This document shows positions 40,421-64,000 of a stretch of DNA of 64,000 nucleotides, piece after piece (position 1 is the first letter of the stretch; each line of letters opens with the position of its first letter). The stretch is from NCBI GenBank assembly GCA_019057475.1, contig DXJO01000020.1:96001-160000 (forward strand), read 5' to 3'. Origin of the DNA: Candidatus Thorarchaeota archaeon. Its GTDB lineage: Archaea > Asgardarchaeota > Thorarchaeia > Thorarchaeales > Thorarchaeaceae. The notes beneath the pieces were generated by a model, which saw nothing but the letters and a program-made list of their open reading frames with translations, was not told where the DNA came from and ran no database searches. The position numbers were made by a program, and so were the translations under genes.

Positions 40421-41530
40421 GTGCGAATGCCACGCTTCAATAATACCTCACGGATTATCGTGACTGTAGTAGCCCTGATGATACTTCTGTCATCCTTTCA
40501 GCTCAACGTAAAAGCTCAAGCGCAGCTTGACCCAATTGTTGTTCTTTATGATGCAAGTCATCTTCAGCAGATTGACCCATTCGATGAGGAAGGGCTGAAG
40601 CTGATGTTTGACATGGTGAATGAGTCATCACGATACATTATAAGAATCAATGAGGACAATTCTCTGAATGCATCGGTTCTGAATGATGTGGACATACTGA
40701 TAATATCTGATCCCGACGCAACCTCTGAATTCACTCAAGAGGAATCTTCTGCCATCGCAGAGATGCTGGTTAATGGCAGCTCGCTTTTGGCACTGGGAAA
40801 TCCTACAATCACTCAAAATTCGACCTATTGGAGTTCCGCACCGTTTCAGGATCTAGGTGAGAACATCGCACTGAATACACTCTTTGATCAAATCAACATG
40901 AGCGGAGTGAGATTCAGTGTGAACTACACCTTGGACGACCGGATTTGGGGCGATACGTTGTTCGACTATGAGCATTCCCTACACCCCAACAGCTCGTGGG
41001 TACTACAGCTCGATTCCAGTACTTGGGATACAACGCATCCTATCTTCAAGGACATCAACGAGCTATTCACAATGACTGCCACGCTCAGGCCCATTGATGC
41101 GGCAAGCGCTGTTGCCAGAGGATACGATTCCTCTTTTGCCCAGTTTAGAAAAGGCCCTTACAGCTGGGGCAATGTATCGTTTCCGAACATTAGCCTGACA
41201 GAGTTTGAGGAAGCCCCGCTTTCGTATTCAGCCATCAATGGTACCCTCCCCCCATGGCTTGCAGCCTTCGAGTATAACGGAAGCAGGGTAATCGTTGCCG
41301 GGTCAACGATGATGTTCACCGGTTACAACCTTGACCTGCCAGATGGGGTTTCAAGGTCGGAATCGCAGTGGTTCTACCAAGGTGATAACGCAAGGCTCTT
41401 CATGAATATGCTCGATTGGCTTTCAGCTGGTTCTGCTGAGCCTCCCAGTGCAATAGTGCCCATGTTGACGATTTCTGCTGTGATACTACTTGTTGGTATT
41501 GCTTACTACCTCATCAAAAAGATGCGGTGA
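40421..41530 (+). CDS. Type I membrane glycoprotein with GIFT/GATase-like domain (OST48/IFT52/GldG-like)
   Basis: Signal peptide, VVLYDASH, DILIISDP, SRVIVAGS..MF, DNARLFMNMLDWL, C-terminal TM and KKMR tail. Confidence 0.7.
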   Translation: MRMPRFNNTSRIIVTVVALMILLSSFQLNVKAQAQLDPIVVLYDASHLQQIDPFDEEGLKLMFDMVNESSRYIIRINEDNSLNASVLNDVDILIISDPDATSEFTQEESSAIAEMLVNGSSLLALGNPTITQNSTYWSSAPFQDLGENIALNTLFDQINMSGVRFSVNYTLDDRIWGDTLFDYEHSLHPNSSWVLQLDSSTWDTTHPIFKDINELFTMTATLRPIDAASAVARGYDSSFAQFRKGPYSWGNVSFPNISLTEFEEAPLSYSAINGTLPPWLAAFEYNGSRVIVAGSTMMFTGYNLDLPDGVSRSESQWFYQGDNARLFMNMLDWLSAGSAEPPSAIVPMLTISAVILLVGIAYYLIKKMR

Positions 41531-41534
41531 AACA

Positions 41535-42155
41535 TCACCATTCCGGCTTCTCTACGCCCCGCCTGTCCAAATTCGCTTCGATGGTTTCCTTAAGCTGTGA
41601 GATGTTAACACGCTTAGATGCAGATATCGGCACAATCTGAGGCTCTATGTCTGGCACAACCTCTCTAAGCTTCATCTCCAAATAGTCGAGCTCGTGGGAA
41701 ATCCTGCTTTTCTTGACTTTATCGATTTTGTTTGCAGCCACAACTACACCTGAGGAAATCTCGGATAAGAAACCGTAAAACTCGATATCAACAGGAATCT
41801 CACCACGTTTATCCCATCTCTCGACAAGCACTCTAAACAGGGATACATCTACAATCAGGATTGCTACAGCTATTTTCTTCCCCCATTCCTCAAGCCTGTG
41901 AATGACCGTAGTCTTCGTTTCTTCTATTGTTGCCTTGCTTTGACCTGCCATGTGACCAAAGCCTGCCATGTCAGCTAGAATGACTGGACCAAGGTCTATG
42001 AGAAACTCCCAGCGCGTGCTTCCGGGGCGCTTGCCAACCCGCACTCGCCTACCAGTCAACGCCCGTATAGTACTGCTTTTTCCAACATTGCTTCTGCCAG
42101 CAAATACTATCAGCGGCTTTCCACCCTTGATCTTGGTACGGCTTCGTTCTTGCAT
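41535..42155 (-). CDS. engB: GTP-binding protein EngB
   Basis: AGRSNVGKSS, GKRPGST, DMAGFG, NKID. Confidence 0.92.
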   Translation of the reverse strand: MQERSRTKIKGGKPLIVFAGRSNVGKSSTIRALTGRRVRVGKRPGSTRWEFLIDLGPVILADMAGFGHMAGQSKATIEETKTTVIHRLEEWGKKIAVAILIVDVSLFRVLVERWDKRGEIPVDIEFYGFLSEISSGVVVAANKIDKVKKSRISHELDYLEMKLREVVPDIEPQIVPISASKRVNISQLKETIEANLDRRGVEKPEW

Positions 42156-42199
42156 TCTCCTTCTTCGCCTTTGCTATTTCTCTCAAGAGTGCGTGTTGT

Positions 42200-42352
42200 T
42201 CATGTCGTAGAATAATCGATGCAGTCGGCGGTCCAACTCCTGCGTCCGAGAACTCTGGGAACAGTCTTCTCCTGAATCTCAGTAAAAGGTGTAATTTGCT
42301 GGGATGAAATACAATTGTGTATCTCTTCATTGAGGGACGCAAACATGCTCAT
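42200..42352 (-). pseudogene. Truncated SF2 (Lhr/DEAD-like) helicase N-terminal fragment, 50 codons
   Basis: MFASLNEEIHNCISSQQITPFTEIQEKTVPRVLG resembles a helicase Q motif; stops before Walker A; ATGA-coupled to the upstream ORF. Confidence 0.5.
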
Positions 42353-42600
42353 CTAGAGGACTTCCTCTCCTTCAGATGCTGAATCTCGTTTATCAAGATA
42401 CGCATGTCAGTCCTAAGTGTAATCTCCACATCATCCATTTTGGACTCAAGATCACGCACAACGCCATCGATTGAAACGCATTCAGTCACGAACTCATCAA
42501 CAGTCATCTGTAATGCTGCCAAGTTAGAGATGTGCGCTGCAACATTGTCAAAAGCAGAACGAATTATTTCGTAACAGTCACTGGGAGGAGATTCTCCCAT
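42349..42600 (-). CDS. Hypothetical helical protein, 83 aa
   Basis: ORF with GAGGAG upstream, coupled to neighbours. Confidence 0.6.
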   Translation of the reverse strand: MGESPPSDCYEIIRSAFDNVAAHISNLAALQMTVDEFVTECVSIDGVVRDLESKMDDVEITLRTDMRILINEIQHLKERKSSR

Positions 42601-42603
42601 CGC

Positions 42604-42717
42604 CTACTCCTCTTCTTGAGTTTCACCATAGACTGTGTAGCCGAGAATCATAATTAGCACTACAATGCCGAGTATCTTTAGGGCGACATCAACTATTGGA
42701 ATTAAATCGGCTTGCAT
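42604..42717 (-). CDS. Unannotated 37-aa single-pass membrane protein (OST4-like)
   Basis: MQADLIPIVDVALKILGIVVLIMILGYTVYGETQEEE; TATA-like TTATAA upstream; 3 nt before the next ATG. Confidence 0.6.
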   Translation of the reverse strand: MQADLIPIVDVALKILGIVVLIMILGYTVYGETQEEE

Positions 42718-42797
42718 GGCAATCCTGTGTCCTCGGAATAGGTCGGCTTATAATAATTGCTGATAGACAAATCCCGAACTACAGGACAATGCTCTGT

Positions 42798-43052
42798 CTA
42801 TGCAGCTTCTGCTTTGCGCTTTTCATAGAATTTGTCTATGAAAGATCCATAGACGTCTACAGGCTCAGTTAAATCATTAACTTCATCTATTGCCATCTCC
42901 AGCCCACAGAATCCGCACTTGACTGTCGCCACAATTTTGGCACGATATAGCTCTATCTTGATGGAGGTGTTACCACACTCCGGACACGGGTAGACGTCCG
43001 GAATACGCTTCTGAGGTCGTCGACGCACCTTCTGCCTTCGTCTTCTACCCAT
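42798..43052 (-). CDS. elf1: Transcription elongation factor Elf1
   Basis: MGRRRR basic N-terminus, CPEC...CGFC Zn ribbon, EPVDVYGSFID. Confidence 0.92.
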   Translation of the reverse strand: MGRRRRQKVRRRPQKRIPDVYPCPECGNTSIKIELYRAKIVATVKCGFCGLEMAIDEVNDLTEPVDVYGSFIDKFYEKRKAEAA

Positions 43053-43258
43053 ATTGAATCACCATTTGCCTATTTCACACAGACCGCGGATGGGCCCCGA
43101 AAGAAACAGAGCGGGCTCTGCGACGCCAGTTTTCATTTAAGCATTATGTTAGGTCAACCATCACTAACTGAAATCAGTGACCTAAACGCTGAACGTTCAA
43201 ATCAAGCAAGTTTTGCGCACAGAAGCTTTCTTATCTCAGCATACTTCGCTGTGAAACT

Positions 43259-43495
43259 ATGTCAGGTTTCTCAAGGAACGCCCAGTGTGTTTTGCGCATC
43301 CTAGAGTCGTCAGAGTCGATGTTAACTTCGGAGATTCTGGAAACCGCAAAACAGCCTGAGTATGTGGATCTCTGCGCAGACTGCGCTGGAGGCGACGCAT
43401 TCATTGCAGCTGCGAATCAGCTAGCAAGTCAAGGTCTAATTGCTAAGAAGTTTGGAAAGGGCGGCTACCGCTGGCATCTTGTGGGGGCGAAGTAG
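43259..43495 (+). CDS. Small winged-helix protein with three Cys (CxxC)
   Basis: L.TSEI...L..QGLI.K....Y.W wHTH pattern; abuts sufS start. Confidence 0.65.
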   Translation: MSGFSRNAQCVLRILESSESMLTSEILETAKQPEYVDLCADCAGGDAFIAAANQLASQGLIAKKFGKGGYRWHLVGAK

Positions 43496-44734
43496 TTGGA
43501 CGTAGCAAGAATACGCGAGGATTTTCCTGTCTTGAAGCGCATAATCAATGGTCATCCACTCGTTTACCTTGATAGTGCATGCATGTCACTGAAGCCTTTG
43601 CAGGTACTTGCTGCTATGCGCGAGTACTATGAACAGTATCCAGCTTGTGCTGGTCGAAGTATCCACAAGCTTGGTGAAGAAGCATCAAATGCATACTCTG
43701 CAGCACGAGCCAAGATTGCCGACTTCATCAATACTGCTGAGCCTGAGGAGTGTATCTGGACGAGGAATGCAACTGAGTCGTTGAACATGGTGGCCAGTTC
43801 GGTGAAGCTTCCGAAGGGCTCGAAGATAGTTACTACTACCCTAGAGCATCACAGTGGCTCATTGCCATTTGTGGAGCGCGCACGCAGAGATGGTCTAAAG
43901 ATTGAGATAATTGAAGCCAAAGATGATGGCACATTCGACATTGAGGACTGGAAAAGAGTCATAGATACTAACACTAGTTTGATTTCAGTAGTCCATTCAT
44001 CCAATGTAACTGGCACTGTTGCCCCGATGAAGGAGATTGTCGAGATAGCTCATGACCGGGGGGCGTTGGTCATGTCTGATGATGCCCAATACGCTCCACA
44101 CCACCCCCTGGACGTGCAGGATTTAGATGTTGATTTCTCAGCTATCTCAGTTCACAAGATGTGTGGACCCACCGGTGTAGGGGTTCTCTATGGAAAGATG
44201 GACCTTCTGAAGTCAATGGACATGTTTCTGGTTGGAGGTGACACCGTAGCTGACGTCAGGTATGTTGATGGCAAAATCGTTCCGGAATACTTGCCTCCGC
44301 CAGAGAAATTTGAGGCCGGGCTGCAGAACTATGCTGGAGCCATTGGTGCAGGAGCAGCTGCTGATTATCTTCAATCAATTGGGATGCACAACATCGAGCT
44401 TCATGAGAGGAATCTTTTGAGTTTCGTGTTGAAGTCCCTGAAAGAGATGGATAATCTTACAATCTTTGGAACGGACGACATCAGCATCAAAACTGGACTT
44501 GTTGCTTTTATGGTCAGTACAGTGAACACTGCGCATGATGTGGCCGGCTATCTCAGTGATTCATACGGCGTAATGCTGAGGTCTGGTGCACACTGCACTC
44601 ATCCTTACCACTACCAGATGGGAATACCTCCTTCGAAAGGGACCAACAGGGCTTCGGTCTACCTCTACAATAACAGAAAGGATGTGGAGGCATTCATAGA
44701 GGGATTGCATGCGCTGATTGAAGCAAGTTCCTAG
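43496..44734 (+). CDS. sufS: Cysteine desulfurase, SufS/group II
   Basis: VYLDSA, SVHKMCGPTG (PLP Lys), FEAG, RSGAHC. Confidence 0.92.
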   Translation: MDVARIREDFPVLKRIINGHPLVYLDSACMSLKPLQVLAAMREYYEQYPACAGRSIHKLGEEASNAYSAARAKIADFINTAEPEECIWTRNATESLNMVASSVKLPKGSKIVTTTLEHHSGSLPFVERARRDGLKIEIIEAKDDGTFDIEDWKRVIDTNTSLISVVHSSNVTGTVAPMKEIVEIAHDRGALVMSDDAQYAPHHPLDVQDLDVDFSAISVHKMCGPTGVGVLYGKMDLLKSMDMFLVGGDTVADVRYVDGKIVPEYLPPPEKFEAGLQNYAGAIGAGAAADYLQSIGMHNIELHERNLLSFVLKSLKEMDNLTIFGTDDISIKTGLVAFMVSTVNTAHDVAGYLSDSYGVMLRSGAHCTHPYHYQMGIPPSKGTNRASVYLYNNRKDVEAFIEGLHALIEASS

Positions 44735-46533
44735 TCCAGCATATCTGCGACATTCTGCTTCATTCGCTTGATCTCTTCAATGGGATCTGCGAAATCAAGA
44801 CCGCTCGCAGCTATATCTACAGAGTCTTTGTACTTAGTCACACGTCCTTGAATCGAAATGTATCGTCCAAGCATCTTGTCAGTGTTTTGCTCTATTGGTG
44901 CTTGGTTGTTTCCAGATTTTGAAATGAGATCGAATGCCTCTTGGGCTGTCATCTGCAGGAGTTCTTCACCTGTTTCGCCAAAGAGAGTCACTCGAATAGA
45001 ACCGGAACCATCGTCCAACGTGACCTTGTACAGCATTCTGGGCTCTGGTTTCTTAACCTCGCCGCAGACGCTGCAGATGTACTTACCATCTCTATCCTCG
45101 ACCTTCTTCCTACAACTCGGGCAGGCTTGGTACACAGGACTTACCTGACCAACCCCTACAACTATGCCACAGACCTCTACAGTTTGTCCTTCGTTCTCCG
45201 CATCTATGTCGCCAATCATGACTCTTCCTGCGCGAGTTATCGTTTCCAAAGACACTCCCGAGAGGTCAAGCTTTGCCAGTTTCGAACCCTTGGGGTTGAT
45301 TTTGATTTTAGCACGGCGACCCACGTGAAATTCAATACCACCTCTAAATCCCTCCTTCACGTAGCCATGTTTGATTCTGATGACATTGTCCTCCTGCAAA
45401 TCTTCTATCTTGTCTACATCATCATTCCAAAATGTGACCCGTGTGGTCCCAGATTCATCGGCAACAATAAGATTCTGAACTTTGCCCTCTTTTCCGTCCC
45501 TCTCAAAGGTCTTGGACGGGAAAATCCTGGCCACTTTGCCCTCAATGTCGACATCACGCATATCTACTGTCAGTTCCGAGATGTTCTTCCTGCCAAGTGG
45601 CTCTGAGGCAGGTGCTCCTACACTCACTTCCACCGCATCTATCTTCTCCTTTAAATCTCTCTCAACTTTCGAGGCTCTGGTGGTATGGAACTCGACATCT
45701 CCGTAGCGACCAGCCTTGGTGCGGCCGCCAGTGACTCTGATGACCTCACCCTCCTTAGCATCCTGCATCTCTTCCGCATGCTGGTCCCAAAATACAAGTC
45801 TGGCACTGCCAGTTTCATCAGCGCCAATGATGCTCAACACCTTGCCTTCACTACCGTCGCTTTTGCGGGTGAATGTGGATAGATTGAAAATCTTGCCGAT
45901 TTTCACCAACAGATTCACATCAAACGCCCCATCCTGAAGGTCATTCATTTTAGCAGTCTGCGACTCAAGCACATCAAACTCTAGACCTTCCATCTCGTGG
46001 TCATCAATGATTCTAATGTTCGCCATGCGACCAAGGTTGAGTTCAAGGGCGTCACGCATTCCTTTCTTCACATAGGCACCTCTTATCTGAATTACGTCGC
46101 CAACATTGATTGCCCCCTCAGACACTGCCACTGTTTGGTCGTCCCACATAGCGATTCTGATTCTTCCAGTTTCATCTGCAACCACTATGCTGGCGACCTT
46201 TCCTTCTCCGCCGCCGGATCGAGAAAAAGTTCTGACTGTACCAACATTGACAACCTTTGCAGTTAGGGCAACATTCCTAATATCCTCGGATATGTCTTTG
46301 ATTGTCAGGCGTGCTTTGGGAGATACCTGATGAAGATCGATACCAAGTTCACGTGCAACAATCATTGCTGCAGATTCGTCGTTAACAACCTCAGGACCCA
46401 ACTCCTGGCGTTTCTCTTCGATGAATTTCAAGATGTCCTTGCGTTCATAATCGGATTTGTGTTTCAAAATAAGTTGAATTGTTTCTTCAAGCGTGAGCAC
46501 TTCTATTACCATCCAGTTGCTGGGTAGTGACAT
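44731..46533 (-). CDS. rpa: Replication protein A, multi-OB-fold with Zn-finger OB (RPA1-like); start may be 46512 or 46500
   Basis: Three repeated DETG/DESG OB folds plus YQACPSC..CSVC and LDDGSG. Confidence 0.92.
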   Translation of the reverse strand: MSLPSNWMVIEVLTLEETIQLILKHKSDYERKDILKFIEEKRQELGPEVVNDESAAMIVARELGIDLHQVSPKARLTIKDISEDIRNVALTAKVVNVGTVRTFSRSGGGEGKVASIVVADETGRIRIAMWDDQTVAVSEGAINVGDVIQIRGAYVKKGMRDALELNLGRMANIRIIDDHEMEGLEFDVLESQTAKMNDLQDGAFDVNLLVKIGKIFNLSTFTRKSDGSEGKVLSIIGADETGSARLVFWDQHAEEMQDAKEGEVIRVTGGRTKAGRYGDVEFHTTRASKVERDLKEKIDAVEVSVGAPASEPLGRKNISELTVDMRDVDIEGKVARIFPSKTFERDGKEGKVQNLIVADESGTTRVTFWNDDVDKIEDLQEDNVIRIKHGYVKEGFRGGIEFHVGRRAKIKINPKGSKLAKLDLSGVSLETITRAGRVMIGDIDAENEGQTVEVCGIVVGVGQVSPVYQACPSCRKKVEDRDGKYICSVCGEVKKPEPRMLYKVTLDDGSGSIRVTLFGETGEELLQMTAQEAFDLISKSGNNQAPIEQNTDKMLGRYISIQGRVTKYKDSVDIAASGLDFADPIEEIKRMKQNVADMLD

Positions 46534-46665
46534 CCACTCGATACAACATTTCAGCTTGTATCCTATAAAGTAGTATGCTCAATCCTACCGAGCTGGATTG
46601 ACTAATCCGCAGTTGACAGGCCGAAACATAAATGACCACTACCGACAACAGAGAAATGACAACTT

Positions 46666-49600
46666 GTGACCGAGTCTGAGCCTAGCCTACCAAAGCATAG
46701 CATCCACTATGCCCGCTACTTCGCTGCACTGAATAAAGAGGTCAAAAGAATCTATGCAGTCGCAGAGAGTGCAAGGGCGAAGGGCGTTGACCCCACAACA
46801 GTTGTTGAGATTCCGCCAGCGTATGATGTAGCTGCTCGTGTTGAAGCTACACTTGACGGCCCTGTTGGCGTAGCAAAGCGAATTCGAGAGCTGCAGAAAG
46901 ACAAAAAGCGCTCAAGAGAAGAGGTAGCCTTTGCTGTCGCCAAAGAGATTGCCACAGGGAATCTAGGTGGCATCACAGACCATGAAAAGGCTGCAGACAA
47001 AGCCGTACGAGTGGCTCTGGCGATACTTACCGAGAGCATTACTGCTGCTCCAATTGAAGGAATCTCAAAAGTTCGAATTAGGGGCGCGGGTTCAGATCAA
47101 TACCTTGCCATCTATCTCGCGGGGCCTATACGGGCTGCTGGCGGTACAGAGGCCGCCATGACGGTTCTAGTTGCAGACTATGTACGGCAGGTGTTAGATC
47201 TTCCAGCATTCAAGGCTACTGAGGAGGAAGTCGAGAGATCTCTGGAAGAGGTTGAGCTCTATGCACGAGCAGTGCATCTTCAGTATCCAGTGCAGCTTGA
47301 CCTTTTACGACTAGCAGCCTCGAAACTACCAATAATGCTGACGGGGGAACCAACGGAGGAGTTCGAGGTATCGGGCAGTCGCGATTTGGATCGAATAGAA
47401 ACCAACCGTGTTAGAGGTGGGGCAGTTCTAGTACTCAATGACGGAGTCGTTGGGAGGGCTGCCAAGCTCGCCAAGATTGTGAACGGATTGGAGATGCCTG
47501 GGTGGGAGTGGCTCAATGAGTTAGCTGAAAAAACCAGCAAGGCCGAGTCATCAGAGGATGAATCAGAGGAGAAGAAACTGGCTCCGAAATCCGAGTATCT
47601 AGCAGATGTGATTGGCGGCCGCCCGGTGTTTTCACATCCATCACGAATTGGTGGTTTCAGATTGAGATATGGCCGGTCTCGCAACACAGGATTGGCAGGG
47701 GTGGGCGTACATCCTGCTACGATGTTCTTGGCTGACGAGTTCTTGGCTCCTGGGACTCACATCCGAACAGAGCGTCCCGGTAAAGGCTCCATAGTGTCCC
47801 CCGTAGACACCATCGAAGGCCCTACGGTACTTCTTCGAGATGGAACAGTTAAGCAGGTATTTACTGCTGAAGAGGCATGCAGGCTTCAAGATAAGACCGA
47901 ACGCATAATCTTTCTTGGCGATATATTGGTTGCACTTGGCGAGTTTCTTGAGAACAATCACCCACTCGTTCCATCGGGGTATTGCGAAGAATGGTGGTCA
48001 CACGATCTCGACAAAGCACTCATGAAACTCAAAAAATCTGAGGTCGAACAACGCCTTTCAGGCTCGGACATCACCGCCAGTGATTTATCCGGATTTATCA
48101 GCAACCCTCTCTCAAGTATCCCCTCACCAGAACAAGCACTTCATCTGGCAATGTCATTTAGGGTGCCACTTCACCCTAGGTATCTCTATCGTTGGCTTGC
48201 GTTGAATGGTGAGGAAATATCGGATCTTAGGACTTGGCTTTTGAAGAATAAGAGGATAGAGAGAACCTCCCAAAACAGCCGCATAGTCCTTCCAAATGAT
48301 GCACGATACAAAGAGCTACTCACAAGAGCAGGTATCCCTCATTCTCTGAATGAAGACCGTAGTATGATTTGCATCACAGATAGCCCCGCAACAGTTCTAG
48401 CGCAATTGGGTGACAAACGCAAATCCCCCAAGGGAAGTAACGCTCTTGAGGCTCTCAATTCTTGCACGAAAATCGAGCTTAGGGATAAATTGGGGTTCTC
48501 GATAGGGGCAAGAATGGGTCGGCCTGAGAAGGCTGAAGAACGCAAGATGAAGCCTCCTGTTCACGTGTTGTTCCCGGTAGGACGAGCTCTATCAAGCGAA
48601 CGACGAGTGGAACGCATTGCCAAAAGCAACGAACACACATCAACACAATGCACCTTCGATGCTGATGGCACGGTTATGGAACCCGCTCTGGGGGGTTCAG
48701 GTGTACGGCTTGAAATGGTATCCAGAATCTGCACAGGATGTGGGCTTGAAACCTTTGAGTCCAAATGTCGCGAATGTGAGTCACATACTGAAGTCCAATC
48801 GTGGTGTTCGCATGAAGAGTGTGGCAGGGCAGTGGATACCACCACTGGAGTGTGCCCCAATAAACATGACATGAATCTTATCCGCACCACGAAGACTATC
48901 TCTGTGGACTTCCAAGCGCTTTTGGAAGACATAAAGAAAGATCTTGGTGAGTCACAGACTTACAATCTTCGAGGAGTCCTAGGACTGACCAGCAATCATA
49001 AGGTGCCAGAATATCTTGGAAAGGGAGTCTTGCGCGCCAAACATGATGTATACACTTACCGCGATGGCACAGCACGATTCGACGCCACTGATGCACCGCT
49101 GACTCACTTCAAACCCAGAGAGATTGGGGTTTCTGTGGGCCGTTTACATGAACTCGGATACAGAGCTGATTATCAAGGCGAGCCTCTGGTTTCAGATGAG
49201 CAGGTCATTGAGCTCATGGTTCAAGATTTGGTTGTCCCTGAAAATTGTGCGGACTACTTGGTTAATGTAGGCAATTTTGTAGATGATTGCCTTCAGCGAA
49301 TCTATGGCTTGGACAGATACTACGGGTTCCGTAGTCGTGAGGCCATAATCGGACAGTTGGTGATTGGGCTTGCTCCTCACACATCTGCGGGGATAATTGG
49401 CAGAATAATTGGGTTTACAAATGCAAGCGTGTGCTATGCACATCCTTACTGGCATGCTGCAAAACGGAGAAACTGTGATGGTGACGAAGACGCCCTAATT
49501 CTAGTCCTTGATGCACTCATCAACTTCTCTAAAGCTTATCTTCCAAGGGGCAGAGGTGGATTCATGGATGCTCCCCTTGTTCTGTCTGTAGTTCTAGACC

Positions 49601-50229: not shown

Positions 50230-50234
50230 TATCC

Positions 50235-51086: not shown

Positions 51087-51243
51087 TGTTGATATTACTC
51101 CGGTACAAGATATAGAGTGTCATTGAACCTGCTAATTCTTGTTGGACAATTGAGATGTCTAGCCTCAACGACAGAACAAGAATAGGCTCTCTGCTGACCT
51201 TTTATGTCTATCTTTCATTTTAAAATGTTCATCTTTGGACACG

Positions 51244-52550: not shown

Positions 52551-52600
52551 CTGTAGATTCTATCTAAGAAGTCTTAAGGATACCCCAGTACGCGTATGTA

Positions 52601-55287: not shown

Positions 55288-55402
55288 GAAGATTCCACCG
55301 AAATCAGCAGTGCTACTATTGATAACGATGTTGCTTGGCTTGCATGAATTCGCCGCACATCATACCTGTTTATTACCTCATTGAGCATTATGGCATCCGG
55401 CG

Positions 55403-55753
55403 ATGGAAATGAGTCTGGATGATATCAGGGAATTCGAATCCGCGTTTTCACAGGGCAAGCTTAGGGGTAGAGTAATTGACCTTGAGAATGGCATACTGCT
55501 TCTCTTGTCTGACTCAGAAAGGTTCCGAATTTCTCTTTCGGCTGTGGCAATTCCGCCGGCTCATGGACGTAAAGAGCCCGTTTCCACTGGTTTTCTCTCG
55601 ACGGGTCTAGACGCAACGCTTGTACGCACTATAGCCGAGAGAGTTGCAGCATGGACCAATCAGACCTGCATGCTAGTCATCGCGGTGAATGGTCTGAACA
55701 GGGAACTGATGATGGAAATCATTGCAATCCTGAAGAACTACCTTGTGACATAA
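55403..55753 (+). CDS. Proteasome assembly chaperone 4 (PAC4/PSMG4)-like protein
   Basis: SAVAIP...PVSTGFL...IAERVAAWTNQ matches the PAC4 pattern LAVAM...PVSTSLL...LAQRLARKTNK as recalled. Confidence 0.72.
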   Translation: MEMSLDDIREFESAFSQGKLRGRVIDLENGILLLLSDSERFRISLSAVAIPPAHGRKEPVSTGFLSTGLDATLVRTIAERVAAWTNQTCMLVIAVNGLNRELMMEIIAILKNYLVT

Positions 55754-55952
55754 GATGTTCAGCAATCTCGCGTACCCACATACCCGTTTCATCTAGTTCG
55801 TGCACGCGATTCAGGTACTCTTTCCAGTCTATCTCAAATGCGCGTTTCCAATCATCGAACGTAGCCCGCAGGTTATCAAGCGCGTGTCTGTGGTAAATAC
55901 AGAGCTCTGAGTCCTCTGCAACTTCACGACCGCATACCGAACACACATTCAC
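55719..55952 (-). CDS. Small Zn-finger protein (CxxC-x10-CxxH) coupled to topA
   Basis: CSVC...CIYH; GTG start overlaps the topA stop. Confidence 0.72.
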   Translation of the reverse strand: MNVCSVCGREVAEDSELCIYHRHALDNLRATFDDWKRAFEIDWKEYLNRVHELDETGMWVREIAEHLMSQGSSSGLQ

Positions 55953-58078
55953 TTGCTCTTTCCTCCCGTTTTGCGCTTAGCATAGCTCTTTCTACGTTTC
56001 TCAAGCTCCTCGAGGTCATCCTGGCGGCCAGAACATTCAGCCCAGTTGATGCAGGTTTCCCACGCCCTTCTTCCAGAGGTAATCTTGATCATCTGATATC
56101 CGCAATGAGGGCACATCTTGTCTAGTGGAGATATCTTACCGCTTTGGGGCAGTGGGTACGTCTGTTCACATCTCCCCTCCTTATAGTTCGAGCAGCCTAG
56201 AAATCGCTTTCCCGTCTTTGATGAAGATATTATGTTCAGTGTTCCCACATTGCAAGTTGGGCATGGTCCAATCTCTTGTTTTTCCGTCCAGTATCTTCGA
56301 AGACCTCTAACTAAGGTGTTCCCTATTGCCGCCTCCATCAGCCTGAACCTCTCCAGAATTTCGAGAAGTTCTCTCTTGGCATCCACCAACACTTGCTCTC
56401 TATCAGTATCCCCATCTTGGATACCTTCCATCTGTTTCTCAAGATGTCGAGTCAACTCAGCAGACAACACCTCGGGTACATACCGTTCCAATGTTTCGAA
56501 TAATGCATAACCCAAAGTCGATAGTTCGAACCTATCATTCAAGACATACCCTCTTGACCTGACAGAATCAGCAATTCTTGAACGAGTTGACTTTGTACCC
56601 AAGTTCTCTCTCTCAAGGGCTTTGAGCAGACTGGAGGGATTGTAACGTGGAACCGGGGAGGTCTGTTTGTCAGTTACATGTACTGAAGTAAGTTGTATCG
56701 AATCTCCTCTCTCTATCGGTGGAAATTCCTTCTCATTTGTAGTTGCATATGGCTCGTAGAACGCCATCCAGCCCTGCTTCACCACTCTGAGCCCTCGCAC
56801 ATGGAATAGATGGGTGTTGCACCTGACATCAGCCCTGCGGCTCTCCTTGACAGATGGCTCTCCAAAGAGCGCAATGAATCGCCGAACGATTAGGTCGAAA
56901 ACCTTCTTCTCGCTGGGAGTGAGTCGACGAGGGGGTTTAACTCCTGTAGGATGTATCGCTGGATGTGCTGGGTCATCTTTCTTACCTTGAACAGGCATGA
57001 GCATTCCGCCATCAAGCACACGTTTGGCCAGAAACCCATATTGCTTGAGTCCGCTGAGTCCAAGGAGAATCTCCTTCACATCAACACTCGCTGGTATCTT
57101 CTGACTACTGGTTCGTGGGTACGAGATTAAAGCATCCAAGTAGAGCTTCTGTGCAAGAACGAGCGTTCTACTAGGCTTGAACCCGAAGTGTCTGTATGAT
57201 TCTGCTTGGAGGCCGCTTAGGTTGAACGGAACAGGCGGTTTTTGTGTGCTCTTCTTCTTTTCGATTGAATCAATATGTGCTTGTTTCCCCTGAAGTTCAC
57301 TACCAATCGCATCTGCCTCTTTCTTGATGTCGATTCGTTTCCTAGAGTACTCCAGTTCGATTTCAACTCCGTCGTGGTCGCCCATGGCCTTTATGGTCCA
57401 GAATGGGACCGGCACGAAGAGGTTGATCTCCTGCTCTCTTTTTGCCACAAATGCAAGTGCGGGACCCTGAACTCTGCCAGTTGATACTATCTTGAACCAG
57501 CCCGCAGTACTCTTGATTGCAAGAGTCAGGGCACGTGTGAGGTTTATTCCATAGAGCCAATCGACCTCATGCCGCACCTGACCCGCTTCTATTATGGGAA
57601 ACTCCAACGTCAGTGACATGTTTTCATAGGCATTTTCAAGGTCCTTGGCTGTCAGCGACGAGAAAATCATTCTCTTTGCATCTGCAGGGTCCGTCCCACA
57701 AGCATACTTCACAGTCAGATAACCAATCAAGCTCCCCTCAATGTCGTAATCAGTAGCTACCACAAATTCATCTGCGTCTTTTGCAAGCCTCTTGATCAGT
57801 CGGATGATTGGCTTGATTGCTGTCGCTTTCTTGACGACCTCATATTTCGGAACCCACTCTGTTTCGAGTCTAGGGTATGTCCACCCCTTCTCTATTTGGC
57901 GGAGATCATACAGATGCCCTAGCGCGTAGGCTACAATGAGGGTGTCCTTACCTCTCTTGAACTTGTAGTATGAAACTCGCCCCTCCTTGACTTCACTCAA
58001 AGACTCCTGTTGACTCAACGCTTCAGCGATTCGTTTCGCGGCGGTGGGTTTTTCAGAGATAATCAGGACTCTCGACAG
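55949..58078 (-). CDS. topA: DNA topoisomerase IA; probable CTG start at 58078
   Basis: IISEKP, ATDYDIEG, STGRVQ, ISYPRT (catalytic Tyr), C-terminal Zn ribbons; SD GAGGCGA before CTG. Confidence 0.96.
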   Translation of the reverse strand: MSRVLIISEKPTAAKRIAEALSQQESLSEVKEGRVSYYKFKRGKDTLIVAYALGHLYDLRQIEKGWTYPRLETEWVPKYEVVKKATAIKPIIRLIKRLAKDADEFVVATDYDIEGSLIGYLTVKYACGTDPADAKRMIFSSLTAKDLENAYENMSLTLEFPIIEAGQVRHEVDWLYGINLTRALTLAIKSTAGWFKIVSTGRVQGPALAFVAKREQEINLFVPVPFWTIKAMGDHDGVEIELEYSRKRIDIKKEADAIGSELQGKQAHIDSIEKKKSTQKPPVPFNLSGLQAESYRHFGFKPSRTLVLAQKLYLDALISYPRTSSQKIPASVDVKEILLGLSGLKQYGFLAKRVLDGGMLMPVQGKKDDPAHPAIHPTGVKPPRRLTPSEKKVFDLIVRRFIALFGEPSVKESRRADVRCNTHLFHVRGLRVVKQGWMAFYEPYATTNEKEFPPIERGDSIQLTSVHVTDKQTSPVPRYNPSSLLKALERENLGTKSTRSRIADSVRSRGYVLNDRFELSTLGYALFETLERYVPEVLSAELTRHLEKQMEGIQDGDTDREQVLVDAKRELLEILERFRLMEAAIGNTLVRGLRRYWTEKQEIGPCPTCNVGTLNIISSSKTGKRFLGCSNYKEGRCEQTYPLPQSGKISPLDKMCPHCGYQMIKITSGRRAWETCINWAECSGRQDDLEELEKRRKSYAKRKTGGKSK

Positions 58079-58208
58079 TTTGGCTCGCCTCTCTCGAATC
58101 TGGCGGAATAGACCAGTCCAATCTAGTGATACTTGGACTGGTACAAATGTGCATTTCACGATAGTCTTAAAAGCAGACCGCCAAACGGCACCGTTCGAGG
58201 TCGAACAG

Positions 58209-58673
58209 ATGAAACCATGGTGGCCGCGATTCATTGTCAAACCCCGCGTGCGACTTATTAGGCCGCGTTTCGGAATGCCCGCACGGCCTCCAGAAATTCT
58301 CGTATTTGGTGTGTTTTTCTTTGCTATATTGTTCGTTCTCGGGGGAAACATCTACACTCTGGTGAAGTCCCCCCCTGCCATAGCAACTGGGCCAAACAGT
58401 GAACCCATCATAGTCTACCCCGCCCTCGACGTCCAGCTGGGGCTGGAGGGCATGGTAGCTTCGGTTGTCATAATGATTGGTGTCATTGGTCTGGGGCTAA
58501 TCTATTACAGTTCTAGATACGTTTTCCAACCGGGTTACGCAATGCGTCTCATGGCTCTTGGGATGATTCTGGCTGGAGGAGCTTTCCTTATGGTCACCTA
58601 TCTTATGATCCTGAAATCTCCAAGTAGAACAGGCATCATTCCGGTGCTCGAAATGGTCCAAGCTTTAACCTAA
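58209..58673 (+). CDS. OSTC/DC2-like oligosaccharyltransferase subunit (OST3/OST6 family)
   Basis: LGGNIYTLVKSPP...QLGLEG..AS....G..GL with three TM helices, 154 aa. Confidence 0.78.
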   Translation: MKPWWPRFIVKPRVRLIRPRFGMPARPPEILVFGVFFFAILFVLGGNIYTLVKSPPAIATGPNSEPIIVYPALDVQLGLEGMVASVVIMIGVIGLGLIYYSSRYVFQPGYAMRLMALGMILAGGAFLMVTYLMILKSPSRTGIIPVLEMVQALT

Positions 58674-59378
58674 CACGTGGTACTCTATCCTGCTGCTCGA
58701 CATCAAATGTGTCAAGAGCTCTTCTGCAATCTGAAGCTTAATCCTCTTCCGCTTGCTGGCACGGAAATTCCCTTCGTGATTGGGTTTTGACCACTTGCCC
58801 ACAGTTACCCCAAAATCCATCCCCGCAAGTACTATGCGTCTTGGTGCATTCTGGGCAATGATATGACAGGCTCTATCTCCATCAGTGAAGCCGCCCCAGA
58901 GGAATACATTGTCTGTGGGTTCGACCTGGGTGCTGCCCAAGATTATTCCTAAACTTGGAACGGACTCTCTCACCATTTCCATGTTATCACCATGCGCATG
59001 AACAATGGCGAGGGTGCCATGCTCTACTGCTTTCTTAATGTGCTCCATTCGCCCATCAAGGTCAGTTACAATAATGTCACAGTTTAGTCCCAGATTGATA
59101 AATGCTGATATCGCTCCATCCGCAGCAACGTACACGGCATTGTCAAACTCCTTTGACTTGATCACAATTTCAAGGTGTCGCTCTAAAGATGGGCCCGCTC
59201 CGCATACTATTACTGTGCGTCCAGCAACAAGTTCATTCAGGTCACGAAGTAGTGGTTCAGGATCTATATCCTTAAGCAAGTCTGTCAGCAGGGCTGTAGC
59301 CATGCGGTCTGCTTGAACATCGAGCTCAAGTCTATCAACGATGTCCAGATAGAACGGTTTCCACTCTTCCCATCGCAT
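58665..59378 (-). CDS. mptE: 6-hydroxymethyl-7,8-dihydropterin pyrophosphokinase (MptE, DUF115)
   Basis: GAGPSL, AADGA, VTDLDG, HAHGDN, GGFTDGDRA. Confidence 0.92.
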   Translation of the reverse strand: MRWEEWKPFYLDIVDRLELDVQADRMATALLTDLLKDIDPEPLLRDLNELVAGRTVIVCGAGPSLERHLEIVIKSKEFDNAVYVAADGAISAFINLGLNCDIIVTDLDGRMEHIKKAVEHGTLAIVHAHGDNMEMVRESVPSLGIILGSTQVEPTDNVFLWGGFTDGDRACHIIAQNAPRRIVLAGMDFGVTVGKWSKPNHEGNFRASKRKRIKLQIAEELLTHLMSSSRIEYHVLG

Positions 59379-59384
59379 ATGGAA

Positions 59385-60278
59385 CTACTCCGCGCTCTCC
59401 CGACTCTCGCTTATGCCAGACACTCTCCTCAGTGCTTTTCCTATTTTCGCAGCAATCTTGCCCTCTTTCACATCGTGTGTACGGATCAAATTGGCGCCAT
59501 TCGCCACAGCTATAGATGTGACTGCGATGGTGCCCGTGAGTCTTATGCTAGGATCTGGCTGATTGAGTAGATTTCCAATGAAAGCCTTCCTCGAAACACC
59601 AACAAGCACAGGGTGCCCCAGACTGCAGAATCTATCTAGCTCTCTGATAATTTCCAGATCCACCTCTGATGGCTTGCCAAATCCAATACCTGGGTCAATA
59701 ATGATTCTTTCTTGCGGTATGCCAACAGATAGAGCGGTCTTGACACTCCTCTCAACTGAGCGAATGGACGCCTTCAACGTCTGACATGAGCCTCCGCAGT
59801 CAGCCATCAGCACAATGGGCACGCCACGGTCAGCGACAAGCTTTGCCATTCTCTTGTCTCTGGCAAGTCCTGAAACATCATTCACCAATGAAACCCCAAT
59901 GTCGATAGCAGCTTCAGCAACTTCTGAGTGGACCGTGTCTATTGAAACCGGAACTCTCGTGTTCCGAATAATGTACTCCAAATTCCTAGTCACTCTCTCA
60001 AGCTCAACTTCAACAGTCACCTCGGGAGTACCATAGACTCCTCTTGGTGCGGTTGATGCGCCCCCGACATCAATGATGTCAGCACCATCTTGTTCCATAC
60101 CGTTGATGGCCTTGGCCAGTTGTTCACTGTTATCCACGATTGAGTCGCGATAGAATGATTCCGGGGAGAGGTTGATGACACTCATGACGCGCGGAAGAAA
60201 GTCAGCTCCAACCTTGAGCCCACCTATGTCTACCGTGTGATGCTTCACGACCAAGAAACCTCGCGTGGTGAGCGACAC
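59385..60278 (-). CDS. folP: Dihydropteroate synthase (start may be near 60248)
   Basis: INLSPESF, DVGGAST, IIDPGIGFGK, SRKAF, RTHDV. Confidence 0.93.
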   Translation of the reverse strand: MSLTTRGFLVVKHHTVDIGGLKVGADFLPRVMSVINLSPESFYRDSIVDNSEQLAKAINGMEQDGADIIDVGGASTAPRGVYGTPEVTVEVELERVTRNLEYIIRNTRVPVSIDTVHSEVAEAAIDIGVSLVNDVSGLARDKRMAKLVADRGVPIVLMADCGGSCQTLKASIRSVERSVKTALSVGIPQERIIIDPGIGFGKPSEVDLEIIRELDRFCSLGHPVLVGVSRKAFIGNLLNQPDPSIRLTGTIAVTSIAVANGANLIRTHDVKEGKIAAKIGKALRRVSGISESRESAE

Positions 60279-60307
60279 AGAAGAAGATAAAACCTAGCTC
60301 ATTTCGA

Positions 60308-61483
60308 GTGAGCTTGAATGACTTGGAGTCAACGACCTTGAATGACAAGCTCCGCCGACCTCAGCTATTCGAATGGCACAAAGCTCATGGAGATGTAGTT
60401 CCGTTTGCGGGCTGGGAGATGCCAGTTAGATATACAGACATCCGAGAAGAACACTTAGCTGTCAGGAATGCAGTTGGCATATTCGACATTTCGCATATGT
60501 ATCGCTTCTTCATCAGAGGTCGTCAGGCAGCACAGTTTCTGCAGACAATCACAACAAATAACGTGAATAAACTGAAGGTGAACGGAGGGCACTACACGAC
60601 GTGTCTCAATGAGCAGGGCGGAATCCATGACGATTTGATGCTCTACAGAATTGCTGAGCACGAGTACATTTGGATCACCAATGCATCGAATGGCCCAAAA
60701 ATCACACAGCATCTATTGACGGAAGCCGTGAATTTCGAGGTTGAAGTGGAGGACAAGACAAGTGAGATTACTATGGTTGCTGTTCAAGGCCCAAAAGCGC
60801 TTTCCTTGCTGTGCAAACTGGCTGGAACCGATGTAAGCGAATTTCCAAAGTTCAGTTGCAATCTTATCAAGCTTGCAGGACATGACTGTTACTTGTGCCG
60901 AACCGGTTACACTGGGGAGGCGGGGGCCGAGATACTCCTTCTCAATACCCCCTTCAATGATGAAGGGACGAGCAGAGCAGTTGCATTCTGGGAAGAGCTG
61001 CTGAAGCAAGGTGCGGAATATGGCGTGAAACCATGCGGTCTCGGCTCAAGAGATTCCACCCGCCTAGAGGCTGGTTTCGTTCTCTATGGTCACGAGCTGG
61101 AGGAAGACATCACTCCGATTGAAGCACGGATACGCTATGCGGTGAAGTTCAAAGTTGAGCCACATTATATCGGATATGATGTGTTGAAGAAGCAGAAGGA
61201 AGAGGGAGTAGAGAAAACGCGTATCGGACTCGTCATGATAGACCGCGGTGTTCCGCGGCAACACTACAATGTTCTATTCAACAGCAACAAAATTGGGCAC
61301 ATCAGTAGTGGTGGCGTATCTCCGCTCTTGAAGAAGGGCATCGGACTGGCCTTTGTCATTCCAAGCATGGTCAATGAAGGCGATACTGTTGAGATAGACA
61401 TCAAAGGGCGACTACGAAAGGCTCGTGTGAGCGGGTGGCCCTTCTTTGACTCAGAACGCTATGGTGAGAAGCGCACCAAGTGA
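60308..61483 (+). CDS. gcvT: Glycine cleavage system aminomethyltransferase T
   Basis: FAGWEMPV.Y, FDISHM, RTGYTGE, RLEAG. Confidence 0.95.
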   Translation: MSLNDLESTTLNDKLRRPQLFEWHKAHGDVVPFAGWEMPVRYTDIREEHLAVRNAVGIFDISHMYRFFIRGRQAAQFLQTITTNNVNKLKVNGGHYTTCLNEQGGIHDDLMLYRIAEHEYIWITNASNGPKITQHLLTEAVNFEVEVEDKTSEITMVAVQGPKALSLLCKLAGTDVSEFPKFSCNLIKLAGHDCYLCRTGYTGEAGAEILLLNTPFNDEGTSRAVAFWEELLKQGAEYGVKPCGLGSRDSTRLEAGFVLYGHELEEDITPIEARIRYAVKFKVEPHYIGYDVLKKQKEEGVEKTRIGLVMIDRGVPRQHYNVLFNSNKIGHISSGGVSPLLKKGIGLAFVIPSMVNEGDTVEIDIKGRLRKARVSGWPFFDSERYGEKRTK

Positions 61484-61536
61484 TGGGAACTGATTTAAAG
61501 GAGCCCAAATCACACCGAACCCGAAGGTGTAATCCT

Positions 61537-61935
61537 ATGACAAAAGGCACCGCAGTTATCGAAGGACTATACTACAGTAAGGCTCACGAATGGGCCAAAG
61601 TTGAAGGTGACGTCGTGATTGTGGGCATTACAGACTATGCTCAAAACTCACTGCACGAAATCACATTCGTAGAAATCAGTGATGTAGGGACATCACTCAA
61701 AGTTGATGAAGAGTGTGGCCTTGTTGAGTCTATGAAGGCATCATCGGACCTCTTCACACCCCTGGCTGGAGAGATTGTCGAAGTGAACGAAGCATTGGAA
61801 GACGCACCAGAACTCGTCAATGAGGATCCCTACGGCAAGGGATGGATGTGGAAGATTAAGCCATCCAATCTTAAGGGTGATTTGAAGGCACTCCTAGACG
61901 CCAAGGGCTACAGCGAGTATACTGCATCCCTCTAG
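61537..61935 (+). CDS. gcvH: Glycine cleavage system H protein
   Basis: HEWA, VGITDYAQ, VESMKA (lipoyl Lys), NEDPYGKGW. Confidence 0.96.
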   Translation: MTKGTAVIEGLYYSKAHEWAKVEGDVVIVGITDYAQNSLHEITFVEISDVGTSLKVDEECGLVESMKASSDLFTPLAGEIVEVNEALEDAPELVNEDPYGKGWMWKIKPSNLKGDLKALLDAKGYSEYTASL

Positions 61936-62223
61936 CAAGGTTCTAACGCCCCGAGCGATAGATACTCCTGGGAACTGCATAAACAGATTGGGGGTCTTTT
62001 GAATTCGGCCCCCAACCATTATTATCCAATTGGCACTGCTCAGATACCACCTCTCAGACATCTTAACCCCATCACACTGCATAAGTGATGAAAATTCTTC
62101 TCGAGTCTACGGGGGTTTTGCATTTTATTCCGAAGTGTACATCCTCTGAACTAACAGCAACCTTTTTAGCGAATCCAAGTTTGCCTCGAACTAATTCGAG
62201 TCCAAACGGAGAGAACCCGCTGT

Positions 62224-64000
62224 ATGTCTAGACTTAGCAGACTCAAGAAAGCCACCGTAAAATTCCTACGGCAGGTCTTTCACAAACCCAAAGCCAAGAT
62301 CTCGCGAGGCTCCATTATCATAGTTCTCGCATTGACTATCATATTCTTTGTGGCTCTGGGGCTGCGTCTGCAACCCTTACTGAACTCCCAACCTATTGTG
62401 CGCGCTTTCGACCCATGGCTTCAGCTGAAGCTCACGTCGTATATCACAGAGAACGGAATCTCGGCGTTTTTCACGTGGTATGATGACTCCACATGGGTGC
62501 CGTTCGGTCGAGACGTAGCTGCTGGCGTGTACCTTGGAGTGCCGTTCACAACTGCATTCTTCTATTGGTTCTTGAATGCAATCGGTATCAGTGTAGAATT
62601 GATATACGTCGCCATAGTCTTGCCCGCTTTCATGGGAGCACTCACATGTATGGTTATGTTCCTCCTTGGTAGAGAGCTTCACAGCAACAGCGTTGGATTA
62701 TTCAGTGCGCTCTTCATGGCGTTCATTCCAGCTTTCATGCAGAGGACTGTTGTTGGTTTCTTCGACAATGAGTGCATAGGTGTTTTCGCTATTGTCCTCA
62801 CTTCATACTTCTTCATTAGAAGCACAAGGAAAAGCTCTATGCGTTCTGCGGTCGGAGCCGGCCTCTCCCTAGCTTACCTTCTTGGGTCTTGGGGAGCAGC
62901 TGACTTTATGCTCGGCCTTCTTGCTCTCTATGGGTTCTTCATGCTGGTTTCCGGACGATACAGTAGGCGCCTGTTGACTTCCTATCTCATAACACTGAGC
63001 CTTGGCATTTTCTTGGGTGGTCTAGTCCCGCGCAATGGGTTTGGTAATCTCACTTCATTCTCCATGCTCGCCCCGATTGGAGTGGGAGCTCTGCTGGCAG
63101 GTTATGAGATATGGCGGAGGATTGGAGTTTACCGTGAAGCGACTGCCTCCGTACTTGCTCCACATATGAAACCGATTCTGCTCGGTCTGATAACCCCCGT
63201 TGTGGGCGCAGCAGCCTACTTCATCTTTGCAGGAAACGAAGAACTCACCATTAGTCCTTTTCAATCCAACCCGTTCGTCACTCTCGGTGCCAAATTCATG
63301 AGCGTCATCAATCCATTCTTCAGGCTGGATCAACGAATTTTCGCATCAGTTGCGGAGCATCTTCCCAGCCCATGGGGAAGCTTTTACCAGACGTTGCTGG
63401 TCTTGATATTCTTTTTCCCATTAGGGATGTACTTTCTGTTCAAACGGGGTCGTGATGAAGACTGGTTTATCTTTCTATTCGGTCTAACCACCGTCTACTT
63501 CGCAGGGAGTATGATTCGACTTGGACTCATTCTCGCCCCTGCCGTATCAGTCATTGGAGCTGTCGCAGTTTACAGCATCCTCTCTCCGTTCGCCAAAATA
63601 GTAACTCAGCAGTCAGTCTTTGAGAGGCGTCGATTTCGAATCAGCTCAGCACTCACGTCTGAGCACGCGATCGCAGCGTATATGATTGTTGGACTCTTGC
63701 TATCAGTGAACGTGATTCTGGGTGCAGACTATGCCGCTAACATGTCCAACCCCGAATTCTCTCCCGGTGATATTTCCAAGGGCGCAACCCTTACTGACTG
63801 GCCCACCGCAATGACATATATCCGCAATGTATTACCTGACGACGCAATTATCGCTAGCTGGTGGGACTACGGATACTGGATCAATGGTGCAGCGGGTGGG
63901 ACCACTATTGTGGATAACGCAACATGGAACAGTACGCAAATCGCATGGATGGGCTATGCATTAATGGCGCTGAATTTGACGGAGTCACTCAAGACCTTCA
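62224..64000 (+). CDS. aglB: Oligosaccharyltransferase AglB/STT3, truncated by window end and absent from the ORF track
   Basis: Manual translation: AFDPW, W.PFGR, GFFDNE, SVAEH, SWWDYG, VDNATWNSTQI. Confidence 0.95.
   Translation, partial: MSRLSRLKKATVKFLRQVFHKPKAKISRGSIIIVLALTIIFFVALGLRLQPLLNSQPIVRAFDPWLQLKLTSYITENGISAFFTWYDDSTWVPFGRDVAAGVYLGVPFTTAFFYWFLNAIGISVELIYVAIVLPAFMGALTCMVMFLLGRELHSNSVGLFSALFMAFIPAFMQRTVVGFFDNECIGVFAIVLTSYFFIRSTRKSSMRSAVGAGLSLAYLLGSWGAADFMLGLLALYGFFMLVSGRYSRRLLTSYLITLSLGIFLGGLVPRNGFGNLTSFSMLAPIGVGALLAGYEIWRRIGVYREATASVLAPHMKPILLGLITPVVGAAAYFIFAGNEELTISPFQSNPFVTLGAKFMSVINPFFRLDQRIFASVAEHLPSPWGSFYQTLLVLIFFFPLGMYFLFKRGRDEDWFIFLFGLTTVYFAGSMIRLGLILAPAVSVIGAVAVYSILSPFAKIVTQQSVFERRRFRISSALTSEHAIAAYMIVGLLLSVNVILGADYAANMSNPEFSPGDISKGATLTDWPTAMTYIRNVLPDDAIIASWWDYGYWINGAAGGTTIVDNATWNSTQIAWMGYALMALNLTESLKTF

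Follow-up and report, generated by a model that had tools for sequence, protein, structure and literature searches.

Four open reading frames (ORFs) lying within 24 kb of one another in the genome of a Candidatus Thorarchaeota archaeon raise the question of whether this organism assembles an oligosaccharyltransferase (OST) from several subunits, as eukaryotes do. The window analysed here is the whole stretch of 64 000 nucleotides, positions 96 001 to 160 000 of contig DXJO01000020.1 (G000:C54:96001-160000); the genome comprises 3.34 Mb in 56 contigs and is 96% complete. Proteins closely related to two of the candidates also carry the name Candidatus Thorarchaeota. A reading made from the letters of the window alone (the sequence-only reading) had nominated an STT3 catalytic subunit and three putative accessory subunits resembling OSTC/DC2, OST48/Wbp1 and OST4, and all four ORFs exist where it had placed them. 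Our analysis supports a core of STT3, a DC2/OSTC-like protein and an Ost4-like protein that resembles subcomplex II of the eukaryotic enzyme, with the OST48/Wbp1-like candidate as a paralogue of Wbp1 and the neighbourhood of the four genes as inherited synteny. The probability of this reading is estimated to be roughly two in three. The features concerned are listed below with their window coordinates, strand, description and the basis of the assignment.

62224..64000, plus strand, running off the window: eukaryote-type STT3 catalytic subunit (Pfam STT3, PDB relatives, motifs)
58209..58673, plus strand: DC2/OSTC-like protein of 154 residues with three transmembrane (TM) helices and without a thioredoxin domain (OSTC profile match)
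42604..42717, minus strand: Ost4-like mini-protein of 37 residues with one TM helix and an acidic C-terminal tail (conservation, complex prediction)
40427..41530, plus strand: type I membrane protein of 369 residues with one extracytoplasmic GIFT domain (AlphaFold2 model, VIA-align, tree)
42349..42600, minus strand: conserved soluble protein of 83 residues with no Pfam family (ORF layout, synteny)

STT3 and the DC2/OSTC-like protein

The complete STT3 has 908 residues and ends at C54:160947 (L001:1408-4134). It is the sole STT3 in the genome and matches Pfam STT3 (PF02516) with an E value of 2.4e-47 over profile positions 2-404 of 405. When compared with all solved structures it gave seven matches at E <= 0.001, all of which are eukaryotic STT3 proteins; human STT3A is the closest (1.7e-82), and the others are canine STT3A, yeast Stt3, human STT3B and an isolated yeast C-terminal domain. 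No archaeal AglB chain was matched at E 0.001 in this PDB search, and the archaeal model TIGR04154 (archaeo_STT3) scored 72.9 bits against a cut-off of 450. The motifs SVAEH, WWDYGYW and DNATWNSTQI align column for column with SVSEH, WWDYGY and DNNTWNNTHI of human STT3A. With these alignments and no AglB among the PDB matches, the eukaryote-like character that had been claimed for STT3 from SVAEH and DNATWNSTQI is borne out. The references for eukaryotic subcomplex II were STT3A-OST4-DC2/OSTC (human OST-A; PDB entries 6S7O and 8B6L) and Stt3-Ost4-Ost3/6 (yeast; PDB entry 6EZN); as in these assemblies, the catalytic motifs are kept and the sequence is closest to STT3A/Stt3. Unlike the eukaryotic enzyme, the Thorarchaeota (Thor) STT3 carries a C-terminal extension of about 180 residues (residues ~726-908; L001:3583-4131). 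Matches from other Asgard families stop near residues 665-734, and the extension therefore looks lineage-specific.

For the DC2/OSTC-like gene, a longer GTG frame from 58044 (209 residues) was considered and ruled out, since all orthologues begin with MKPWWP, which fixes the start at 58209. The orthologues have about 140 residues, with three hydrophobic stretches and nothing else visible, and the family is conserved throughout Asgard. In the PDB, a profile built from 34 orthologues matched OSTC chains alone: human 6s7o_H at E 5.8e-7, with positions 12-137 of 140 aligned to 15-143 of 149, and canine 6ftg_3 at E 1.9e-5. No chain of Ost3, Ost6, TUSC3 or MagT1 was found by this profile at E up to 10. 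The Pfam OST3_OST6 model scored 26.4 bits on the window protein against a cut-off of 27, through the TM part of the profile, and PF04756 is assigned in precomputed annotation to all of the DC2-like homologues listed. The full-length match, specific to OSTC, confirms the earlier description of an OSTC/DC2-like protein with three TM helices, and in having a full-length OSTC homologue as a putative partner of STT3 the Thor set is again like eukaryotic subcomplex II. The literature files the Asgard three-helix protein as Ost3/6 (Eme et al., 2023; PMC10307638); unlike that label, the Thor protein matches OSTC and no Ost3/6 chain.

The DC2-like gene is found 1.9-4 kb from STT3 in every Thor genus searched, at 4.9 kb in f2 and at 4.2 kb in f3 (f-numbers denote Asgard families; one f4 relative is labelled Hodarchaeota). 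In two f4 genomes the two genes are directly adjacent and divergent (G027:C69:7532-10320 and G038:C119:4444-6964). This linkage over families f1, f2, f3 and f4 is the best genomic hint of a functional tie between the two proteins. On the other side of the DC2-like gene, the longest topoisomerase frame (window 55949-58351, minus strand) overlaps it by about 140 nucleotides; because the Toprim domain begins at residue 95, the topoisomerase gene is probably shorter at its start than this frame and a divergent neighbour of the DC2-like gene.

A 37-residue protein and the Ost4 groove

The frame of the mini-protein was found in all 24 Thor-family genomes and, in a wider draw, in 43 of 43, with lengths of 33-41 residues. 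Its consensus over 18 genomes from 16 genera is MQ...LnAMGIxALxLILAYsVYGEEEEE, and codon positions 1, 2 and 3 differ at 0.38, 0.19 and 0.68, respectively, which is a coding pattern. The mini-protein is a real gene under purifying selection. In the Thor family it always stands between Elf1 and a gene of about 80 residues, and a syntenic counterpart is present in a second Asgard family, f15. The 83-residue gene of the window begins three nucleotides after the mini-protein gene, with which it is probably co-transcribed; a gene of about 75-110 residues holds this position in other Thor genera and in f15.

A multimer prediction of the kind suggested as a check covered STT3 residues 1-725, the DC2-like protein and the mini-protein. 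It placed the mini-protein at a confident interface with STT3, with scores (interaction prediction score from aligned errors; ipSAE) of 0.80, 0.81 and 0.81 in three runs. The best of three controls scored 0.00; these were two unrelated 37-residue proteins and a run with STT3 replaced, both kinds giving 0.00. In calibration, 58 of 80 solved complexes reached the ipSAE mark, as did two of 110 mismatched pairs. The runs share at least 84% of their contacts, and the predicted local distance difference test score (pLDDT) of the partner is at least 75. Confident mini-protein contacts are predicted on STT3 residues 28-54 (TM1), 154-167, 450-461 and 486-505, the last stretch being the final helix ahead of the luminal domain (TM13), and the N-terminal residues of the mini-protein are predicted to touch the outer ends of these STT3 helices. 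In the words of a review, 'Ost4 is nestled between TMH1 and TMH13 of Stt3' (PMC7226087). Like Ost4, the mini-protein has one helix, and in these models it is predicted to occupy the Ost4 groove between TM1 and TM13 with its N-terminus outside. Unlike Ost4, the C-terminal tail of which is basic, it has an acidic C-terminal tail, and it shows no detectable sequence similarity to Ost4. The proposed OST4-like ORF is a real, conserved gene with a predicted place in the Ost4 groove.

The GIFT-domain protein

The GIFT gene probably starts at the ATG at 40427 and not at 40421, because the methionine at position 3 (M3) is invariant in an alignment of 30 orthologues. Orthologues are present in 43 of 43 Thor-family genomes. 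From its N- to its C-terminus the protein comprises a signal-peptide-like segment, the GIFT domain, a TM helix and a short, basic tail (KKMR). Its only Pfam match was ABC_transp_aux, at 2.3e-6 and below the cut-off; in this it is like GldG/ABC_transp_aux/DUF4350 proteins, and the feature-based clusters closest to it consist of GIFT/DUF4350 proteins from non-Asgard archaea and from bacteria. The OST48_N model (PF03345) matched neither the protein (E up to 1) nor anything in the genome (E up to 10), and weak matches in two of the 43 Thor-family genomes both fall in other, longer frames of 673-687 residues.

With 30 sequences, all from Thor, AlphaFold2 (AF2) gave a poor model (pLDDT 54); with an alignment of 108 sequences the pLDDT rose to 88.7, at a predicted template modelling score (pTM) of 0.83. 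The Foldseek comparison that had been suggested was performed with this model and did match OST48 and Wbp1 (1.8e-8 to 1.1e-7), with GIFT domains of IFT52 ranked first (4.8e-10); the best PDB profile match is also IFT52. Alignment in VIA-align gave Z scores of 22.9 (root-mean-square deviation, r.m.s.d., 2.4) and 22.3 for IFT52, of 21.5 (r.m.s.d. 2.7, 230 residues aligned), 21.0 and 20.9 for human OST48, and of 19.3 for yeast Wbp1. The GIFT fold is confirmed at the level of the model, and the fold does not separate OST48 from IFT52. The likeness to Wbp1/OST48 extends from the fold (Z of about 21) to the signal peptide, the single C-terminal TM helix and the short tail. Residues 36-341 make up a single domain, with the TM helix immediately after it; the luminal part of Wbp1 consists of two domains (PMC7226087), and no second (middle) luminal domain is present in the AF2 model. 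IFT52 is cytoplasmic; in contrast, the Thor protein is predicted to be extracytoplasmic and membrane-anchored and has 13 N-x-S/T sequons, of which 11 lie in the ectodomain. Judged from these sequons, the protein is probably a substrate of heavy N-glycosylation in its own right.

Among 201 Asgard genomes, OST48_N exceeded its cut-off in families f4, f22 and f27 only, in frames of 431-586 residues. With a hidden Markov model (HMM) of the Thor GIFT protein, short GIFT-TM proteins from f5, f10 and f14 scored 60-88 bits, and the Wbp1-type proteins scored below 30 bits or gave no match. A second protein, of 378-400 residues and scoring 66-81 bits with the Thor profile, is encoded in each of the f4 and f22 genomes. 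A maximum-likelihood tree of 40 rows splits into two clades with 100% support in the Shimodaira-Hasegawa-like approximate likelihood-ratio test (SH-aLRT). Clade A holds the Wbp1-type proteins, proteins of f27, f18, f20 and f23 and one f15 protein. Clade B holds the proteins of Thor, f2, Hermod/Odin, Baldr, Loki, Hel, f5, f10 and f14 together with the short f4/f22 proteins; one gene of each clade therefore coexists in the f4 and f22 genomes. No clade-A protein was found in this Thor genome. The Thor GIFT protein is assigned from sequence as a clade-B paralogue of the Asgard (Heimdall) Wbp1 and not as an orthologue of Wbp1/OST48, because of the fully supported split, the gap in HMM scores and the presence of both types in the f4 and f22 genomes. 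The earlier description as an OST48/Wbp1-like GIFT-domain type I membrane protein holds for the fold and the topology; unlike Wbp1/OST48 and their Heimdall homologues, the Thor protein has one luminal domain and no OST48_N match and belongs to a separate clade.

Clade B might represent an unrecognized OST or translocon accessory subunit on the luminal side, a sister or forerunner of Wbp1/OST48. We regard this as doubtful; if it were true, Asgard archaea outside the Heimdall group would already have a Wbp1-like component. In f15 the clade-B GIFT gene adjoins a gene for a DUF92 integral membrane protein (2.9e-71 and 2.3e-73; L102:2767-3588, plus strand, and L118:8261-9085, minus strand).

Gene order, rival explanations and meaning

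The part of the window from 38 to 64 kb contains genes for DUF362, an EngB-type GTPase, Elf1 and a cysteine-desulfurase-type aminotransferase. It also holds those for RPA, the PolD large subunit, a CBS protein, CarS, a RadA-like ATPase, an XPD helicase, the topoisomerase, MptE-like and pterin-binding enzymes, GcvT and GcvH, with genes on both strands. The genes between the four candidates are those for PolD, RPA, topoisomerase, XPD, the RadA-like protein, CarS, folate enzymes and glycine cleavage. The region is not a glycosylation cluster, and an operon of OST candidates was ruled out, as replication, repair and metabolism genes intervene on both strands. The sequence-only reading had itself called the genes non-operonic and their co-location weak evidence, with which we agree, the block being inherited synteny. 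The mini-protein gene and STT3 lie on the same contig 12-37 kb apart in 16 genera, most commonly at about 20 kb, and the GIFT gene is 1-5 kb from the mini-protein gene across the Thor family, separated from it in other Thor genera by Lhr and EngB. In f15 the order is mini-ORF, 86-residue gene, Lhr, EngB, RPA, DUF92 and GIFT. The block recurs across Thor genera and in f15, and the co-location within 24 kb is therefore inherited gene order: the candidates would be neighbours through an old, conserved housekeeping block of replication and repair genes and not through an operon.

Two further observations concern this neighbourhood. In other Thor genera an Lhr helicase of about 950 residues lies between the ~80-residue gene and EngB (L096:650-3499 and L097:2049-4907); at the equivalent position in this genome (window 41535-42600) it is missing, as it is in the genus. 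Outside the window, a Sec61-beta gene (G000:C54:162634-162747, minus strand; L117) was identified about 1.7 kb beyond the STT3 stop, with a Pfam match of 4.2e-13, above the cut-off; a translocon subunit and the OST catalytic subunit are thus near neighbours.

Other OST subunits were sought in the genome using Pfam models. No credible match was found for ribophorin I, ribophorin II or DAD (Ost2/DAD1), the models for the last two of which may lack reach, and KCP2 was not found by the same means; in this the Thor set is unlike the eukaryotic OST. A two-helix ORF of 75 residues on another contig (G000:C19:50320-50505, minus strand; L007:1495-1722) resembles Ost5/TMEM258 (Pfam E value 1.8e-5; 25.3 bits against a cut-off of 27.4; positions 7-70 of 73 in the profile) and is a probable Ost5 homologue by sequence, encoded outside the window. 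Asgard homologues of Ost1 to Ost5, Swp1 and Wbp1 have been reported, with Ost3 and Ost1 widespread, Ost4 and Ost5 present in the majority of Asgard classes, and Wbp1, Ost2 and Swp1 confined to Heimdallarchaeia, including Njordarchaeales (Eme et al., 2023; PMC10307638). The content of the window, together with the Ost5-like ORF elsewhere in the genome, fits this picture. A Lokiarchaeon is listed with OST1, OST3/6 and STT3 in a 2024 paper, and a preprint of 2026 speaks of sibling structural clusters for OST48/WBP1 in Asgard. The statement that some OST accessory homologues had already been reported in Asgards is therefore correct; the proposal of more subunits than currently recognized is not supported, as homologues of Ost3/6, Ost4 and Ost5 are already on record for most Asgard classes (PMC10307638). 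The general idea of a multi-subunit Asgard OST is published.

In the explanation that we consider most likely, a single STT3 of eukaryotic type would have two or more small membrane proteins as partners, in parallel to eukaryotic OST subcomplex II. One would be the three-helix DC2/OSTC-like protein and the other the Ost4-like 37-residue protein, its single helix packed between TM1 and TM13 of STT3 with the N-terminus outside and the acidic tail inside. By analogy with the eukaryotic enzyme, the mini-protein would stabilize STT3 and keep the DC2-like subunit in place, and the latter would connect STT3 with the Sec61 channel. The GIFT protein would be a glycosylated surface or membrane protein of an Asgard-wide family of Wbp1 paralogues, and nothing here places it in the complex. 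Several points weigh against this explanation. Pfam Ost4 (PF10215) matched none of 18 mini-protein orthologues, and the mini-protein profile found no OST4 chain in the PDB at E up to 10; across the 201 Asgard genomes, however, this Pfam model never clears its cut-off and is therefore without reach, which makes the sequence test for Ost4 a weak one. The Thor assembly is a prediction in which the mini-protein was the only scored partner, the placement of the DC2-like chain falling outside the score. The alignments supplied to the prediction are outside the calibration of the tool, its pass may stem from the model's memory of solved STT3-Ost4 structures, and its result is a likeness of position and not a demonstration of binding. 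The GIFT tree is unrooted and contains no rows for eukaryotic OST48, IFT52 or GldG, so that it does not set the order of duplication; a query with a Heimdall-group Wbp1, made to obtain eukaryotic OST48 for a rooted tree, returned seven close archaeal relatives only.

That all four proteins form an STT3A-like complex, with the GIFT protein as the equivalent of Wbp1/OST48, is unlikely in our estimation. In its favour, the GIFT fold matches OST48 (Z 21.5) and IFT52 (Z 22.9) equally closely, the protein has type I topology and a short basic tail, and its gene is universal in the 43 Thor genomes; from one Thor genus to another it keeps a distance of 1-5 kb from the Ost4-like gene, and in f15 it lies no more than 8 kb away. 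That linkage, however, is part of a housekeeping block that also includes Lhr, EngB and RPA, and the protein lacks an OST48_N match, has one luminal domain where Wbp1 has two and is paralogous to a Wbp1 clade with which it coexists in the f4 and f22 genomes. Eukaryotic Wbp1 is moreover held through Ost2 and Swp1 (PMC7226087), neither of which was found here by Pfam, and the nearest feature-based clusters of the GIFT protein are the non-Asgard GIFT/DUF4350 proteins. The opposite view, in which STT3 acts alone like AglB, the DC2-like and 37-residue proteins serve other purposes and the predicted docking arises as an artefact from likeness to solved eukaryotic complexes, draws on the single-subunit nature of most archaeal OSTs (PMC7226087), on the passes that memory can produce in complex prediction and on the probable co-transcription of the mini-protein gene with that of an unrelated soluble protein of 83 residues. 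We hold it to be improbable: two unrelated 37-residue proteins offered to the same groove scored 0.00, as did the run with STT3 replaced, the DC2-like gene stays near STT3 in four Asgard families, and OSTC is known as an OST subunit only. Very improbable is a complex of STT3 and the DC2-like protein only, with the 37-residue protein a generic membrane mini-protein, for example a partner of the 83-residue protein; the missing sequence link to Ost4, the three-nucleotide gap and the conserved synteny of the gene pair would suit it, but the predicted docking is strong, specific and Ost4-like in position and orientation, and size and single helix match those of Ost4.

Two points follow for the naming of Asgard OST components. 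First, what is filed as 'Ost3/6' in Asgard archaea resembles DC2/OSTC, through which STT3A is tied to Sec61; second, GIFT-domain membrane proteins outside Heimdallarchaeia should not be taken for Wbp1. Both leave the published picture unchanged. How the eukaryotic OST came to have several subunits belongs to the wider question of how the translocon of the endoplasmic reticulum arose from an archaeal ancestor, and for this question the window provides a well documented Thorarchaeota example of a set of STT3, DC2-like and Ost4-like proteins.

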